Shown in pieces: positions 1,778 to 25,980 of a stretch of DNA of 64,000 nucleotides. Below the pieces are notes generated by a model. It had not been told where the DNA came from and did not search any database. It saw only the letters and a program-made list of their open reading frames with translations. Position 1 is the stretch's first letter, and each line of letters opens with the position of its first letter. Source of the stretch: an uncultured virus (IMG/VR IMGVR_UViG_3300032462_001943) (lineage: Duplodnaviria > Heunggongvirae > Uroviricota > Caudoviricetes); IMG/VR virus record IMGVR_UViG_3300032462_001943; one strand, written 5' to 3'. The position numbers and the translations under genes are program-made.

Positions 1778-2500
1778 ATGTTGCACAATTTCAATCCTTA
1801 CAAACTAAATCCTAGTTGGATTCTATGCACTCCAAGAACGGGATCGACTTATCTTTGTAGTCTGCTCAATAACTTAAATGTTTTTCCTTCTTATGAAATT
1901 CTTCATCCTTCTATGCGAGAAATTCAAATTGAGCATATGGGCATCATGAGTAAAAATCATACATTTGGAGAATGGTTGCGGTTTTATACTTCTGAACAAA
2001 TAGTGGAATCTCCACCACGTTTTACCAAAGCTCTTTTTTATCAATTTTCAAACATTGCTCCCAAGCACTTTAGCTTTCAGACTGTATTGCCTAATATTAG
2101 GCTTATCGTACTTAAACGATCGAATTTGTTAGATCATACTTCATCTTTGTATTTGGCAAAAAAACTTCAAAGATGGCATTTGCGAAATGAAGAAGATTTA
2201 CGAAATTACGTGAATACAAAAGTTGAAGTTGATGAATCAGAACTTATAAAAACTTATGAAGAAACTATTTCACATTTTAATGTTTGGGATAGTCATCTAA
2301 AAAATGTTACTTATTTAGAAGTGTACTATGAAGACCTATTATCTGATCCGTTCGGTTTCATGAAAAAAATATTGATATTTTTAGAAGTATATGCTTCTAC
2401 TAAATTGATTGAAGAAAGTATATTAAATACAAATTTGGAGTTGGTTCCAACCAATCATCCCGCCAAGTACAAAATTATTTCATTTCTTGAAAATCTATGA
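1778..2500 (+). CDS. Sulfotransferase (Stf0-like)
   Basis: PAPS-binding-like loop TPRTGSTYL, LKRSN..S, VYYEDL. Confidence 0.75.
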   Translation: MLHNFNPYKLNPSWILCTPRTGSTYLCSLLNNLNVFPSYEILHPSMREIQIEHMGIMSKNHTFGEWLRFYTSEQIVESPPRFTKALFYQFSNIAPKHFSFQTVLPNIRLIVLKRSNLLDHTSSLYLAKKLQRWHLRNEEDLRNYVNTKVEVDESELIKTYEETISHFNVWDSHLKNVTYLEVYYEDLLSDPFGFMKKILIFLEVYASTKLIEESILNTNLELVPTNHPAKYKIISFLENL

Positions 2501-3225
2501 TTAGAAATAAAAAATTCAACACAAGTCCAATGATAGTACACGCCCCAGGCGATATTGACTTCAATTTTCATTGGCACAAAATCAAAGACGCACTCCCCAA
2601 AAAATCATCAGTTGAATGCAACTGCGTACCTCGACTTGAAATTATAACTTGGAATTCCAGTGAAAATTCAACCGTTAAAAAAAATGGATGCTTTGAAGCA
2701 TCGCTTCAAATATTTGGGCATTCATGTAATTCTTTAGAATCTCAAACTTGGTCGTCGAATAGAGAAAAAATCAGATTAAGTGTTGATTTCTTAAATCACT
2801 CAACTGCTGATTTCATATTGGGAGTTGATTCTTCAGATGCGATTGTCGTTGCTCCATTGAATTCTATTGTTTCGCAGTTTTTAGAAATAGATTGTGATTT
2901 ACTTTTCAATGCTGAAATTAGATTCTCTCCGCCTCGTGGGCTAAATGAAATAAAATCATACGAAAATTCTTTGCCTACTGCTCCGTACTTTTTGAATGCT
3001 GGAGCATGGATTGGTAAGAAAAATTTTTGTTTACATTTTTTTCAAAAGGCTTTAGATATATCTGAGTCGTATTTTGAATTTTTACATTCAGAGCAAGTTT
3101 GCATCAAGAAAGCGTATAAAAATATGTATCCTAAAGTAAAAATTGATGATAAGTGTCTAATTTTTCAAAACTTAAATTTACAAGAGCCTACCGACATAAT
3201 TATATGCGAAGCAGAGTGGTTTTAA
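2497..3225 (+). CDS. PLOD/procollagen glycosyltransferase-like domain protein
   Basis: GVDSSD, LLFNAE, FLNAGAWIG, SEQ, IDDKCLIFQNL resemble the PLOD GT domain. Confidence 0.65.
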   Translation: MIRNKKFNTSPMIVHAPGDIDFNFHWHKIKDALPKKSSVECNCVPRLEIITWNSSENSTVKKNGCFEASLQIFGHSCNSLESQTWSSNREKIRLSVDFLNHSTADFILGVDSSDAIVVAPLNSIVSQFLEIDCDLLFNAEIRFSPPRGLNEIKSYENSLPTAPYFLNAGAWIGKKNFCLHFFQKALDISESYFEFLHSEQVCIKKAYKNMYPKVKIDDKCLIFQNLNLQEPTDIIICEAEWF

Positions 3226-21703: not shown

Positions 21704-22092
21704 AATTTCACATCAAGAAGAATGCCCACTTTGAGGCTCGTATATACATTGGCAATCGTGTCAAGTATAACGGGCCTCAATTTTCTTTTGCCGAGCTTAG
21801 AGAAGCCATTGGATATTTCCAATCAAACAATGGAATTGAGGCGTCCAATCCCGTTCGTATAACCCCCACAACATTTGTTTGGGAAAAGTACGATGAAGAG
21901 GGATGGGAAATCGCTGTAATTGATTACCCAAGGGTCAGCAAGCCGCATAGTGTTTTGCGTGAGTTTGCATACAACTTGGCAGTTCATTTGTTTGAGAGGT
22001 TTGAACAGAACCGAATGTCTATTGTTTTTCCCGACGAGATAGTTATGCTGGAGGCCGATGACGCAGAAGAAAACAAGTACAACCAAAAGTAA
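21700..22092 (+). CDS. Hypothetical protein
   Basis: ATGA overlap with the upstream gene. Confidence 0.6.
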   Translation: MKFHIKKNAHFEARIYIGNRVKYNGPQFSFAELREAIGYFQSNNGIEASNPVRITPTTFVWEKYDEEGWEIAVIDYPRVSKPHSVLREFAYNLAVHLFERFEQNRMSIVFPDEIVMLEADDAEENKYNQK

Positions 22093-22108
22093 TCGCAAGG
22101 AGAAAAAA

Positions 22109-25100
22109 GTGCCTGTAGTAATCAAAGCTGAGGATCAGCCTGTTGTTGTAGCTACATCTGATTATCCTTACGCCAAATGGAAGTTTGAGACGTTCAATCC
22201 GGTTCAAAGTCGGATTATGGATTTTTATGACAAGGATGTAAACGGTCTTATCGCCGCTATGACTTCAGCAGGCAAGACAGTCGTAGCTGAAATGTTTCTT
22301 GCGCAAGAAATTCGTAAACGTGGTGGCAAGGGCATGTTCCTTGCTCCTTTGCGTGCATTGGCTCGTGAGAAAATCACCGATTGGAAAAACGAGAATTATC
22401 ACTTCGCCGACCAGAAAATTTCTATCTGCACAGGTGATTATAGGCTCACAAAAGAGCGTGCCAAAGAATTGAATGATGCCAATCTCATCATCATGACTTC
22501 GGAAATGTTAAATCACCGCAGTCGCAATCATAAGGCCGAACAAAATAATTGGCTTCTTGATGTTGGCACGTTAATTATTGATGAATGTTTGTCTCCAAAT
22601 GCAATAATTGAAACAGATCAAGGTCCAATTTCTATTGGAGACATCATTGACAAAAATCTGGATGTTAAAGTTGCATCCATGAATCACTCAACCAAACAAA
22701 TTGTATTCAAAAAAATAGTTGCTCGTCAGAAAAAGTTGTTAAAAAGAAGATGGCACACCATATATTATGACGGTGGGCATATTTCTGCGACATCAAATCA
22801 TTTGGTGTGGTGTGAAAATCGTGGTTATATTCCCTCTAAAGACATTCAAGAGGGAGATGTTATTTATGTACGAGGAATTAACGAAGAGAGAAAAACAAGT
22901 AATATTGGGAACTTTACTGGGAGACGGTTCGATAGCTCGACTTCCGCACGGAAAGTCAGCAAGATTGAGGGTTCAACAGTGTTCGGCTCAAAAGGCTTTA
23001 GTCGAATGGAAGTACAACGAGTTGAAGCGATTGGTTGGCACCCCTCCACAAATCAAACCGAACCAAGGGTACGGAAAGGAAGTGTGCAGATTCAACACAT
23101 TGTCAAGCAAAATGTTGTTGGCAATACATTCGATGTGTTATCCACGAGGGAAGAAAATAGTAAATTCTCAGTGGTTGGACGAGATCACCGATCCGGTGGC
23201 ATTGGCGGTGTGGTACATGGACGACGGAAGCCAGGGTCCAAGTATGATGGCAATTCACACCGAGGGCTTTCCCAAATCAGAAGTGGAATTGTTAGCGCAT
23301 TGGTTGGAAACGAAATGGTCGGTGGCTTGCGAAGCCTATCCGACAAAACAATATTGGCAACTCAGATTTCCAGCGAAGGGTCGGGATCGTTTTCAAGAAC
23401 TGGTTCGTCACGAAATAATTTCAGACATGAATTACAAGGTGCTGCCAAAAATGGAGCAGATATTTTGTTCGATGTGTGGTCAGAAATTCATCGCAGATCG
23501 CCGCAGTCTTCATCAAGTCAGGAAGGTCATGCTTTGTGGGGCCAAGGAGTGTCGGTTGAATTGGGACAGGATGTACAGCCGGACGGAGACATGGATTCAG
23601 AGGAATCTTGGTGTTGCGACTTAGAAGTTGAATCTGATTGTTTTGAAGATTGCAATTTTTTTGCAGATGGAGTTCTTGTCCATAATAGTCACTTGTTGAC
23701 TGTTCCAGGTCGTGGAGATCACCTGGAAGTTGGACTCATGAAGTTCACAGAGATCAATCCCAAGGCTCGTCTCGTGTTGCTTTCAGCAACGATGCCTAAT
23801 GTAGAAGAGATTGCCGACTGGATTAGTTATTCTTTGACCAAGCGTGAAACTTTCATGTTGCGGTCCAAGTATCGACCAGTGCCTTTGACTCTTCACTATG
23901 AGTCTTATTACGACGTAGGCAGATACGATCAAGTCGAAGAAGAGAAGGTCAATAAAGCCCTTGAAATTATTGAATGGTATCCAGACGACAAGTTCCTTGT
24001 CTTCGCCCATACAAAGCGTACTGGCGAATTGATGAAGCAAAATTTGCGATCATTGGGCATTGAAGCTCAATTTCACAATGCTGATTTGCAAGCTGATGAG
24101 CGTGCTAAGGTGGAAGATCGTTTCAAAACTGATCCTAAGCTACGGGTCATTGTGGCTACATCGACTTTGGCATGGGGCTTAAACCTTCCTGCTCGACGTG
24201 TGATTATTTTGGGCGTCAATCGAGGAATTGGCGAGGTTGAAACTCACGATATTCTTCAGATGGTCGGTCGATCTGGTCGGCTGGGAATTGATCCGATGGG
24301 TGATGCGTACATCCTCGTTCCTGAAAGTGAAGAGGCAAAATATCGTCAGAAATTCAGCAAGCCGAATCGTATTGAATCCCAGCTTTTAGAAAAAGTTGGT
24401 GACAAATACAAGGTGTTAGCTTTCCATCTTGTTAGTGAAATTCATCACGGCACTGTGTCAACAACCGATGATGTTCATGCTTGGTATAAGCGGTCGTTGG
24501 CTTATTTCCAAAACAAGGCTCTGGATGAAACTGTTGTAGACCAGACTTTAGACTTACTGCGGAAATGCAGTGCGGTTTGGAAAGAAGATGCTGTTGAAGG
24601 TGAGACGGATGAAAAATGGATTTGCCGACCTATTGGGAAAGTTTCCAGCATGTTTTACTTCAGTCCATTTGATGTCTCGGACTTGTATTTTAACTTCAAG
24701 AATTTATTCCAAGACAATAAAGAGGACGACGATTACTTCGTGTCAACGGCTCTGGGAAATATTGATGGTCAGAGAATGAATATAGTTTCTCGTATTGAGA
24801 AAGAAGAGATGAGTCTTTATGCCGCAAAGGTGCGGACCTTGATGCCAGGGAAGTTCTTCAATGATGCCTCTTTGAAGGCTAGTTTTTGCTACTTCAATTT
24901 GTTAAATGGCGTGAACAGCCAAGCCTGTGCCACAACGCAAAGGAATCTTCAGTTCGATTTCAATCGGCTGTCACAGGTTCTTCAGTCGCTCGATACATTT
25001 GGCGGCAATTGGCAACGTGAAAGTTACTTCAAGATTCTTGAGGGGCGTATTACCAATGGGGTTCCAGTTCACTTAGTTGATCTTTGTCGTTTGGCAAACA

Positions 25101-25273
25101 TTGGCAAAGCACGAGCTACGAAGCTCTATGAAGCTGGATTTAAGACTGTTGAATCGGTTGCTGATATGGACTTTGAGAACTTCAAGAAGATTGTCAACAG
25201 TACGGGTAAATCCATGAAGGTAGACGCAGCTAAGGAAGTGTTTGAATCTGCCAAGGTGTTCGCTTTGCTTTAA
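22109..25273 (+). CDS. Ski2/Hel308-like SF2 DExH helicase containing an intein
   Basis: FNPVQ, TSAGKT, IIDE|SH after splicing, LSAT, ATSTLAWGLNLPA, QMVGRSGR, C-terminal HhH; AAGGAG RBS before GTG. Confidence 0.9.
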   Translation: MPVVIKAEDQPVVVATSDYPYAKWKFETFNPVQSRIMDFYDKDVNGLIAAMTSAGKTVVAEMFLAQEIRKRGGKGMFLAPLRALAREKITDWKNENYHFADQKISICTGDYRLTKERAKELNDANLIIMTSEMLNHRSRNHKAEQNNWLLDVGTLIIDECLSPNAIIETDQGPISIGDIIDKNLDVKVASMNHSTKQIVFKKIVARQKKLLKRRWHTIYYDGGHISATSNHLVWCENRGYIPSKDIQEGDVIYVRGINEERKTSNIGNFTGRRFDSSTSARKVSKIEGSTVFGSKGFSRMEVQRVEAIGWHPSTNQTEPRVRKGSVQIQHIVKQNVVGNTFDVLSTREENSKFSVVGRDHRSGGIGGVVHGRRKPGSKYDGNSHRGLSQIRSGIVSALVGNEMVGGLRSLSDKTILATQISSEGSGSFSRTGSSRNNFRHELQGAAKNGADILFDVWSEIHRRSPQSSSSQEGHALWGQGVSVELGQDVQPDGDMDSEESWCCDLEVESDCFEDCNFFADGVLVHNSHLLTVPGRGDHLEVGLMKFTEINPKARLVLLSATMPNVEEIADWISYSLTKRETFMLRSKYRPVPLTLHYESYYDVGRYDQVEEEKVNKALEIIEWYPDDKFLVFAHTKRTGELMKQNLRSLGIEAQFHNADLQADERAKVEDRFKTDPKLRVIVATSTLAWGLNLPARRVIILGVNRGIGEVETHDILQMVGRSGRLGIDPMGDAYILVPESEEAKYRQKFSKPNRIESQLLEKVGDKYKVLAFHLVSEIHHGTVSTTDDVHAWYKRSLAYFQNKALDETVVDQTLDLLRKCSAVWKEDAVEGETDEKWICRPIGKVSSMFYFSPFDVSDLYFNFKNLFQDNKEDDDYFVSTALGNIDGQRMNIVSRIEKEEMSLYAAKVRTLMPGKFFNDASLKASFCYFNLLNGVNSQACATTQRNLQFDFNRLSQVLQSLDTFGGNWQRESYFKILEGRITNGVPVHLVDLCRLANIGKARATKLYEAGFKTVESVADMDFENFKKIVNSTGKSMKVDAAKEVFESAKVFALL
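22586..23686 (+). mobile_element. Intein (367 aa) inserted in the helicase DExH motif
   Basis: DE|CLSPNAIIET...ATSNHLV...DLEVE...NFFADGVLVHN|SH. Confidence 0.92.
22866..23624 (+). CDS. LAGLIDADG homing endonuclease encoded in the +1 frame inside the helicase intein
   Basis: ILGTLLGDGS and LAVWYMDDGS motifs; own GGAG RBS at 22853; C-terminal CxxC...C...C. Confidence 0.85.
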   Translation: MYEELTKREKQVILGTLLGDGSIARLPHGKSARLRVQQCSAQKALVEWKYNELKRLVGTPPQIKPNQGYGKEVCRFNTLSSKMLLAIHSMCYPRGKKIVNSQWLDEITDPVALAVWYMDDGSQGPSMMAIHTEGFPKSEVELLAHWLETKWSVACEAYPTKQYWQLRFPAKGRDRFQELVRHEIISDMNYKVLPKMEQIFCSMCGQKFIADRRSLHQVRKVMLCGAKECRLNWDRMYSRTETWIQRNLGVAT

Positions 25274-25980
25274 CGGCGAATTTTGCGAGTCTTGGTGATT
25301 CTTTCTAATAGCTTCTGTTTGCTGATGTAGGTTTTCTGGACGCCAGTTCTCACTGAGCGTTGCTTGAACGCAGCAAATGAAGCCGAGCCACTGCACTCAC
25401 CTAATAGACTTCCAGTGCTGCTCACCAAACAGCATGAGCAGCAATGCGCAGATGGCGGTGTAATAGACACTCCTACGCCACCACAATCTCCCACAGATAC
25501 GCTGGTTCCTCCTCCGTTTATGGAGCAACCGAAGGGAGCGCCGCAAGCATCGCTGCATCCTGACAGTGACACTGTTCCAGCACCAATTGCCGTAAAAGAA
25601 AATCCTGATCCATACAGACAGCAGCCTGATGTTGACAGGGTGATAGTAATAGTTGAGCATGGAATAGAGCAAGTCGGGACTGAAGTGTCTGGCACTGATC
25701 CAGTGGTTGCTTGCGCATAAACATATCCATCACTGTCTTCTATATCAAACAGATATGCTTGATAATCAAAGTCTGGAAAATCAACATCTAATTCAGGCGC
25801 ACGAAGGGGAGCAGGCACAGCAATAGGCGCACAATCACATCCGGGCGGATAAACACTTGAGCTTGTTCCACACAAATACACATAGGTCCAGCTTGTGTAG
25901 CATGGACATGGTGGGCAACACTTGCAGTTGCAGCCGCAATAGCTGCCAGTTCCCAAGCAATATGGAGGATTACATGCCAT
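25270..25980 (-). CDS. Cys/Ser/Gly-rich hypothetical protein
   Basis: Dense CxC/CC clusters and basic C-terminus; directly follows the upstream minus-strand gene. Confidence 0.6.
   Translation of the reverse strand: MACNPPYCLGTGSYCGCNCKCCPPCPCYTSWTYVYLCGTSSSVYPPGCDCAPIAVPAPLRAPELDVDFPDFDYQAYLFDIEDSDGYVYAQATTGSVPDTSVPTCSIPCSTITITLSTSGCCLYGSGFSFTAIGAGTVSLSGCSDACGAPFGCSINGGGTSVSVGDCGGVGVSITPPSAHCCSCCLVSSTGSLLGECSGSASFAAFKQRSVRTGVQKTYISKQKLLERITKTRKIRR

Follow-up and report, generated by a model that had tools for sequence, protein, structure and literature searches.

Introduction

In the cyanobacterial dnaX intein a LAGLIDADG homing nuclease is encoded in an overlapping +2 open reading frame (ORF) (Phillips, DeSimone and Gogarten, bioRxiv 10.64898/2026.09.14.751524). 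According to that preprint the out-of-frame dnaX nuclease was first proposed by Gorbalenya in 1998, and an origin by secondary invasion is favoured there, partly because no in-frame homologues were seen. We describe here a related arrangement in an uncultured virus (Caudoviricetes; IMG/VR record IMGVR_UViG_3300032462_001943), where a stretch of 64,000 nucleotides (nt), termed the window in what follows, carries an intein in a helicase gene and, in the +1 frame of the same DNA, a homing endonuclease gene. This is very probably a mobile intein whose splicing protein and homing nuclease are two overlapping genes, not one polypeptide.

Other unusual combinations of nuclease and host gene have been described. 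Non-canonical inteins of actinobacteriophages comprise in-frame HNH, antisense LAGLIDADG, antisense VSR-like and frame-3 endonuclease VII-like types (Gosselin, Arsenault and Gogarten, bioRxiv 10.1101/2025.01.02.630785); a sense-strand out-of-frame LAGLIDADG nuclease is not among the types given in that preprint, its supplements aside. The same preprint discusses Walker-type nucleotide-binding sites as a route by which inteins switch exteins, and says that inteins of this kind are under-annotated. Split inteins with free-standing nucleases have been found, together with a model that foresees several outcomes of nuclease invasion (Dassa et al. 2009, PMC2677866). In ShiLan-type phage methylases an out-of-frame HNH ORF is hidden in an insertion through which the host frame stays open (Arsenault et al. 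2025, PMC11855218). An earlier note on the window, made from its sequence, had mentioned reports of alternative-frame intein nucleases in a few phages, and the preprints on dnaX (bioRxiv 10.64898/2026.09.14.751524) and the actinophages (bioRxiv 10.1101/2025.01.02.630785) describe nucleases of this kind.

An intein and a nuclease gene in one DNA segment

The host gene (22058..25273, plus strand) was called as an ORF for a superfamily 2 (SF2) helicase of the Ski2/Hel308-like group, with a precursor of 1071 amino acids (aa), intein counted in. Profile search finds Pfam DEAD, Helicase_C and HHH_5 domains in the precursor, and chains of ASCC3, Brr2 and Hel308 are found with the C-extein, their E-values lying between 1.6e-38 and 5.5e-30. 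The class-1 intein (22586..23686, plus strand; 367 aa) lies in helicase motif II, between DE and SH. Its Cys1 (22586) directly follows IIDE, its block B TxxH is TSNH (22790-22801), CCDLEVE is at 23612-23632, and the C-terminal VLVHN, which ends at 23686, is followed by the Ser+1 of SHLL. Residues C1, T69, H72 and N367 are invariant across seven aligned inteins. The earlier note had read the splicing blocks C1, TSNH, DLEV and HN|S at these same positions.

AlphaFold modelling of the host-frame intein is confident only for residues 1-96 and 340-367, where the predicted local distance difference test (pLDDT) score is about 70-89. The N-terminal splicing domain (22586..22873, plus strand; intein residues 1-96, blocks A and B) has pLDDT 72-89. 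The C-terminal splicing domain (23600..23686, plus strand; blocks F and G) has pLDDT 68-80 and was also aligned with 10 related inteins. For the confident part, Foldseek returned 36 matches in the Protein Data Bank (PDB) at E <= 0.001, and those listed are intein, Hedgehog or BIL-type HINT domains. The best is the DnaX mini-intein 7cfv (E 2.5e-6). This match is no evidence of a special kinship with dnaX inteins: the host-frame intein sequence has a single marginal match among PDB chains, to NrdJ-1 (E 0.041), so that the similarity is to HINT domains in general.

The two splicing domains are joined by a host-frame filler (22874..23599, plus strand; intein residues 97-338), which is unstructured in the model (pLDDT about 20-30). 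Its composition is skewed, with 14.9% S, 13.2% G and 8.7% R against 5.8%, 5.1% and 5.7% in the exteins, and hydrophobic residues make up 28% of it against 39% in the exteins. The filler holds no stop codon, nor does the host frame anywhere else in the intein; the third frame is stop-rich. A Pfam profile search of the host-frame intein found no nuclease motif. Composition and search agree with the earlier description of the middle of the intein as stop-free, rich in G, S and R, and lacking an in-frame nuclease motif.

Read in the +1 frame, the DNA of the filler encodes the nuclease (22866..23624, plus strand; 252 aa plus TAG). This ORF scores 112 bits against Pfam LAGLIDADG_2 (PF03161), for which the gathering cut-off is 25 bits (E 3.8e-32; profile positions 1-164 of 168). 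An AlphaFold model built on a 58-sequence alignment has pLDDT 95.2 and a predicted template-modelling (TM) score, pTM, of 0.88. Its best PDB matches, at E 1e-15 to 8e-14 and TM 0.68-0.78, are I-WcaI (6x1j, E 1.2e-15) and I-SceI, and model and matches together give a pseudo-dimeric alpha-beta-beta-alpha-beta-beta-alpha fold. Both LAGLIDADG motifs are present in the +1 frame of the plus strand. In motif 1, VILGTLLGDGS (22899..22931), residues G15, L17, L18, G19, D20, G21 and S22 are invariant across seven close relatives; in motif 2, ALAVWYMDDGS (23199..23231), W116, M118, D119, D120 and G121 are invariant across all 58 sequences. Each motif has its acidic residues, D20 in LLGDGS and D119 and D120 in YMDDGS, all invariant in the close relatives. 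Behind the core comes a C-terminal zinc-ribbon-like motif of four cysteines, CxxC...CxxxxC (23466..23552, plus strand; nuclease residues 201-229). Its C201, C204, C224 and C229 are likewise invariant across the seven close relatives, the model shows two short strands (198-200 and 207-209) and then helices including a long one, and the motif may well bind metal. Sequence and model predict that the 252-aa product is a monomeric two-motif LAGLIDADG_2 (I-SceI-like) homing endonuclease, and it would presumably cleave DNA as such.

The C-terminal splicing domain overlaps the final 8 codons of the nuclease plus its TAG. The coordinates agree with the earlier claim that the nuclease ORF takes up the stretch from the end of the N-terminal splicing blocks to block F. 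The claim that 22866-23624 is a two-motif LAGLIDADG gene with its own ribosome-binding site is borne out by the profile score and by a putative site, GAGGGAG, 9 nt ahead of the ATG.

Authenticity and conservation of the two-frame layout

Paired frameshift errors in sequencing or assembly could make an ordinary in-frame nuclease look displaced. Contigs from other public sequencing runs span both junctions in four of four cases, with no indel; one of these runs may be the source sample, and the other three belong to different studies. The compensating indels that the earlier note had wished to see excluded are absent from these contigs. An independent viral record (G001) has a 100% identical nuclease, and relatives with 32-71% nuclease identity keep the layout. 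With the same frames in independent assemblies and in divergent relatives, an assembly artefact is refuted, and we leave it next to no probability. Run contigs X4-X7 are 95-100% alike to the window. Near-identical DNA (window 22400-23900, at least half of sampled words) occurs in seven runs, from freshwater, estuary, soil, aquatic and glacier metagenomes; as many as four of the seven may be source samples.

Through the nuclease, 85 loci were fetched from viral and metagenome collections and 80 further loci from prokaryotic genomes. In 10 of the 85 the host frame is open across the nuclease, for 738-1077 codons: the window contig, L001, L002 and L007 (one sequence), L003, L008, L009, L010, L014 and L017. 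Two more (L004 and L015) have the nuclease in frame within a long ORF, and in the remaining 73 the open stretch of the host-equivalent frame that spans the midpoint of the nuclease never exceeds 122 codons. Among the prokaryotic loci 2 of 80 are overlapped, L101 and L149. The nucleases of overlapped relatives are 32-71% identical to that of the window.

Overlapped loci have no host-frame stops, and their third frame has 4-12 stops per 100 codons. For 65 distinct other nuclease relatives, two of which are in-frame intein forms, the host-equivalent frame has 2.2-14.8 stops per 100 codons (median 8.6). Chance openness was assessed by permuting the synonymous codons of the nuclease ORF in 5000 trials and counting host-frame stops. 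For the window no trial of 5000 gave zero stops (mean 13.9), and the same count, 0/5000, was found at each of eight loci (means 13.3-18.8) and at L101; at L149 zero stops were reached in 10/5000. For the related intein of Xanthomonas phage FoX3, described below, 151/5000 trials reach zero stops in a segment of 53% GC, so that avoidance there is not strongly beyond chance.

How stops are avoided can be read from the codons. A stop can arise in the host frame only where a nuclease codon ending in T stands before one that starts with AA, AG or GA, and in the window nuclease the avoidance of such pairs is plain to see: T-ending codons stand before such codons in 0/66 cases, against 50/185 before other codons. 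The absence of T-ending codons before AA, AG or GA makes a simple general test for hidden overlaps. The two-frame layout is confirmed as real and conserved, and the openness of the host frame goes beyond chance.

Selection in each frame

Substitutions in the two frames were compared among the window, L001 and L003 by pairwise Nei-Gojobori estimates, on these three sequences only. In the N-splicing domain and the exteins, differences are highest at host codon position 3. In the overlap they track the codon positions of the nuclease, in the order 3>1>2 (e.g. 0.26, 0.15 and 0.49 for positions 1, 2 and 3). The ratio of nonsynonymous to synonymous rates (omega, dN/dS) in the host frame is 0.18-0.34 in the N-splicing domain and 1.0-1.8 in the overlap, where the nuclease is 54-70% identical at the aa level and the host-frame filler 31-37%. 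The sole conserved motif of the filler, 'VHGRW'-like, is the host-frame shadow of AVWYMDDGS. Because codon-position pattern, identities and omega all differ by frame, purifying selection at the aa level acts on the nuclease frame only, and the filler is merely held stop-free.

A comparison of dN/dS per frame among homologues had been suggested in the earlier note, and the shift in omega between N-splicing domain and overlap is its outcome. The same note took the overlap to be under selection in both frames. For the nuclease this stands; for the filler it fails at the aa level and holds only in so far as stops are kept out.

The nuclease start

A Shine-Dalgarno (SD)-like sequence, GAGGGAG (22850..22856, plus strand), lies 9 nt before ATG 22866 and may serve as the ribosome-binding site. 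Its purines belong to Glu-Gly-Asp codons that lead into the GDVIYV strand at the end of the N-splicing domain, and the Tyr-Val codons of E-GDVIYV supply the ATG itself. At three loci, namely the window, L001 and L003, the ATG is exactly 280 nt downstream of C1. Stops close the nuclease frame 1-6 codons ahead of this conserved ATG in L001 and L003; in the window that frame is already open from 22743. L003 has GGAGA as its SD-like site. Independent initiation at ATG 22866 is well motivated by these sequence features and is what we would predict.

A programmed +1 ribosomal frameshift near 22860 would dispense with internal initiation, and would produce the nuclease fused to the N-extein and the N-splicing domain. 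An SD-like sequence ahead of a shift site can promote +1 frameshifting, as in prfB; the window has such a sequence, and its nuclease frame is open for some way upstream (from 22743). In L001 and L003, however, a product of this sort would run into the stops 1-6 codons before the ATG. The equal offset of the ATG in three loci and the SD spacing of 9 nt fit initiation, and no conserved slippery or stop-codon shift site was seen, so frameshifting is highly improbable.

Insertion site and mobility

All five full-length close relatives of the helicase (L086-L090) lack the intein precisely, with IIDE-SHLL uninterrupted. These intein-less helicases are 76-90% identical in the C-extein, and their DNA over the insertion site is nearly identical to the flanks in the window; judged by its sequence, this DNA is a natural candidate homing site. 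Three more distant helicases (L001, L003 and L008) have an intein at the same site. The host frame of L008 (3-2720) has a second, short, nuclease-less intein after TLAWG (CYKHGSRV...VISHN|CNLPARR), in a later helicase motif.

Hosts and frames of related inteins

The +1 layout is not confined to phage helicases. It recurs in the terminase-large-subunit-like inteins of L009, L010, L014 and L017 (metagenome), with CDEAAF after the intein, in a P-loop ATPase of a Thaumarchaeota metagenome-assembled genome (MAG; L101), and in an SNF2-like helicase of a Proteobacteria MAG (L149; YDE|C). All these +1 insertions are at or beside Walker-B acidic residues. On inspection by eye, each of the 10 +1 loci shows one or several C-terminal Cys motifs related to that of the window nuclease, whereas the in-frame and +2 forms inspected have none.

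A +2 form is found in the cultured Xanthomonas phage FoX3 (L092, MT161383.1). Its gp40 contains an intein (WDE|C...VHN|CHH, 2217-3158) whose nuclease is in the +2 frame, open at 2327-3085, and has no Cys motif. The GenBank label of gp40 is only 'putative DNA helicase', and the RefSeq copy reads 'head morphogenesis' at the match. As a cultured phage, FoX3 could serve as an experimental system.

Frame-0 homologues also exist, in the helicase of L004, the terminase-like protein of L015 and the RNA ligase of Pseudaeromonas phage KLEP7. More widely, 34 of 45 longer nuclease-containing proteins have an Intein_splicing match, and their hosts include RecA, RecD-like, RNA-ligase and DnaX-like proteins. 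All these inteins can be aligned in both splicing domains, N and C, and they share the point at which the nuclease starts, after the GDxIYV strand. Most members of the nuclease family are free-standing proteins of about 190-220 aa. Further matches in a phage database are Acinetobacter, crAss-like and Salmonella entries.

A rival reading is decay of a canonical intein: two compensating indels might have shifted an in-frame nuclease, leaving the +1 ORF as an unexpressed relic in an intein en route to a mini-intein. The frequency of the in-frame state in this lineage (34/45), the in-frame homologues L004, L015 and KLEP7 and the shared junction after the GDxIYV strand would all suit such a history. 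A relic would, however, gather stops over the divergence seen here, and no +1 locus, even at 32% identity, has a broken nuclease frame. Its substitution pattern is purifying, the acidic residues of both motifs are invariant, the ATG with its SD-like sequence is conserved and the product folds at pLDDT 95. Decay is accordingly very unlikely.

Several relatives known as proteins only have the nuclease in frame with one side of the host. In P0133 a DnaX-like N-extein and N-splice domain lead into the nuclease, with which the protein ends; P0125 begins at the nuclease and continues through block F/G into the C-extein. These two, with P0138 and P0151, may be split or half-shifted variants. One source labels close free nuclease relatives 'recombination protein RecA' (entries P0002-P0004 and P0164-P0166), which is misleading; the name was presumably carried over from RecA inteins with a nuclease of this type in frame.

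Origin of the out-of-frame nuclease

Trees were computed on parts of the data: one of 74 rows, one of 59 rows (for which 45 were drawn at random from 135 distinct other relatives) and a quick tree with a random 25. In the 59-row tree 13 intein-resident nucleases form one clade (support 84/86), and relatives that are not overlapped by a host ORF fall outside it. Support is 100/99 for the helicase (+1) set and 98/95 for the terminase (+1) set. The in-frame L004 and KLEP7 lie nested within this clade, amid out-of-frame forms, and L149 (+1) is the sister of FoX3 (+2) with support 100/94; by these two placements, frame changes occur within the intein-resident lineage. The best tree requires three changes, but one +1 clade is not rejected by the approximately unbiased (AU) test (p 0.275).

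The earlier note had supposed that a free-standing endonuclease gene invaded a mini-intein. In its fuller form this history would have a LAGLIDADG gene, already equipped with a start, a stop and a four-Cys DNA-binding tail, enter the mini-intein, after which host-frame stops were purged; it concerns how the element arose and not how it works now. An SD, an ATG and a stop that belong to the nuclease itself speak for it, as do the C-terminal Cys motif present in all 10 +1 loci and absent from in-frame forms, the free-standing state of most family members and the single +1 origin that the AU test leaves standing. The tree speaks the other way: non-overlapped relatives lie outside the 13-member clade, L004 and KLEP7 are nested among out-of-frame forms, and the pairing of L149 with FoX3 implies frame changes inside an intein-resident lineage. 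It is also very unlikely that about 250 codons would have been open by luck on arrival, given 0/5000 permutations. Since homologous inteins carry the nuclease in frames 0, +1 and +2, within one intein-resident clade, and the lineage is commonly in frame, the invasion of a mini-intein is unproven. As history it is possible, though somewhat less likely than not, and junction indels that interconvert the arrangements are at least as likely.

A broader proposal is that the +1 clade with its four-Cys mark is a stable, transmissible architecture that has passed, always as one unit, from the Walker-B (DE|x) site of one P-loop ATPase to that of another, unrelated one, and that the nuclease hops frames by junction indels while selection keeps the host frame stop-free. 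We hold this tentatively, as quite possible. If it is true, such elements would be extant intermediate forms that link free-standing nuclease genes to the in-frame nuclease domains of canonical inteins, and FoX3 would be a test system for frame hopping.

A model of the element

The reading that we prefer, of one mobile intein made of two overlapping genes, can be put as a series of steps. Ribosomes on the helicase mRNA would read through the intein without a break. The first 96 and the last 28 or so residues of the intein would form a HINT splicing domain, and the ~240 residues in the middle would be an unstructured S/G/R-rich tether, its sequence a by-product of the nuclease gene. Protein splicing would excise the whole intein and restore the DE-SH motif II of the helicase. 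Separate initiation at ATG 22866, in the +1 frame, would supply a free, 252-aa, monomeric LAGLIDADG enzyme with its C-terminal four-Cys motif. This nuclease would cut intein-less helicase alleles at DE|SH, and repair would copy in the whole composite element.

Several observations weigh against this reading. Profile searches of both frames, a check suggested by the earlier note, succeeded for LAGLIDADG_2 in the +1 frame; in the host frame Pfam Intein_splicing scores 24 bits, below its gathering score of 35.8, the domain being interrupted by the ~240-residue non-homologous filler. Block F (23633-23653) has a 4-residue insert (within ESDCFEDC), and a Cys at the position where most relatives have His; L001 has Asn there. 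The block-F His, which assists Asn cyclisation, is not universal among inteins. The insert and the Cys, as read in the sequence, lower but do not abolish confidence in splicing and could affect its efficiency, and because of them the splicing competence of the window copy is not assured. At the nuclease start, the SD-like site of L001 is weak (GGTGA), and no conserved RNA structure was found near the start, the three-sequence consensus being weak (-3.98 kcal/mol, 3/16 pairs compensated). Among the window, L001 and L003 the intein has diverged in step with the exteins, so it may be vertically inherited rather than actively homing within this set; vertical descent and homing are both possible for it. 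Finally, what is shown here comprises the two ORFs with their folds, the selection specific to each frame, the avoidance of host-frame stops and the sporadic occurrence of the intein; splicing, independent initiation, cleavage specificity and homing are steps that we infer.

Another gene adjoins the helicase: convergent with it and directly downstream, a 236-aa Cys-rich protein (MACNPPYC...CGCNCKCCPPCPC) is encoded on the minus strand at 25270-25980 of the window, and it is conserved at this place in L001 and L002.

Significance

The locus is an independent, well-controlled example for a recently described class of overlapping-gene mobile elements. Large freshwater phages harbour inteins of this sort, and so do terminase, SNF2-like and archaeal ATPase genes. 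Two aspects are new. One is the breadth of the four-Cys +1 lineage, over helicase, terminase, SNF2-like and archaeal ATPase inteins; the other is the occurrence of homologous inteins with the same nuclease in frame 0, +1 or +2, the cultured FoX3 included. These three-frame homologues bear on how inteins gained their endonuclease domains, by invasion or by frame conversion. Annotation pipelines overlook both halves of such elements: the nuclease is left uncalled or named 'RecA', and the host is labelled a plain helicase.

Comparison with known systems

I-SceI and I-WcaI are of the same Pfam family (PF03161) as the window nuclease and are its closest structures. Unlike it, they come from group I introns in the rRNA genes of organelles, and have neither a four-Cys tail nor an overlap with a splicing gene. 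The insertion of ShiLan-type methylases differs from the window intein in that, as its authors describe it (PMC11855218), it has no splicing domain, its nuclease is of the HNH type and the insert is thought to be retained as a protein loop. The split inteins of Dassa et al. (PMC2677866) resemble the window in having a nuclease gene of free-standing type inside the intein-coding region; in their account the host gene is in two ORFs and splices in trans, whereas the window host is a single ORF of 1071 aa.

Canonical inteins, represented by KLEP7, L004, L015 and RecA inteins such as P0157, share with the window a homologous splicing domain and nuclease core, AVWYMDDGS included, and the same order of domains; the N-splice domains of the window and L004 match at E 3.4e-7 (small database). 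In the canonical forms, however, the nuclease is in frame 0, as part of the intein polypeptide, without a separate start or a C-terminal Cys motif. The actinophage inteins, as set out in their preprint (bioRxiv 10.1101/2025.01.02.630785), are like the window in having the nuclease in another frame or strand while the intein frame stays open, and the terminase large subunit is among their hosts.

The dnaX intein is the closest described case. According to its preprint (bioRxiv 10.64898/2026.09.14.751524) it too has a sense-strand ORF between the splicing halves, with the host frame open and the middle predicted to be disordered. A high-confidence nuclease model was compared with I-WcaI (6X1J) there as well, and the start has SD-like motifs ahead of it; omega is low for the nuclease frame but exceeds 1 for the host frame, and the intein is sporadic, with intein-free alleles. 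Judged from the DnaX-like relative P0133 (YLVDE|CFTED), the insertion site is again the Walker-B DE| of a P-loop ATPase. The two systems part in frame, +2 in dnaX as the preprint gives it and +1 in the window, and in host, which for dnaX is a subunit of the bacterial clamp loader and for the window a phage Ski2/Hel308-like helicase, encoded on a 462,616-bp contig. Cyanobacterial relatives of 323-331 aa (P0099 and others), which are candidates for the dnaX nuclease and were compared as proteins alone, have Cys motifs N-terminal to the core, whereas the four-Cys motif of the window nuclease is C-terminal; in the quick tree they group, with weak support, with FoX3 (+2) and not with the window's clade. 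The arrangement as such is already published for other inteins, and the window differs from these by its +1 frame, its C-terminal four-Cys motif and its helicase host. Its intein belongs to the dnaX kind but not to the dnaX lineage, as frame and Cys architecture differ.

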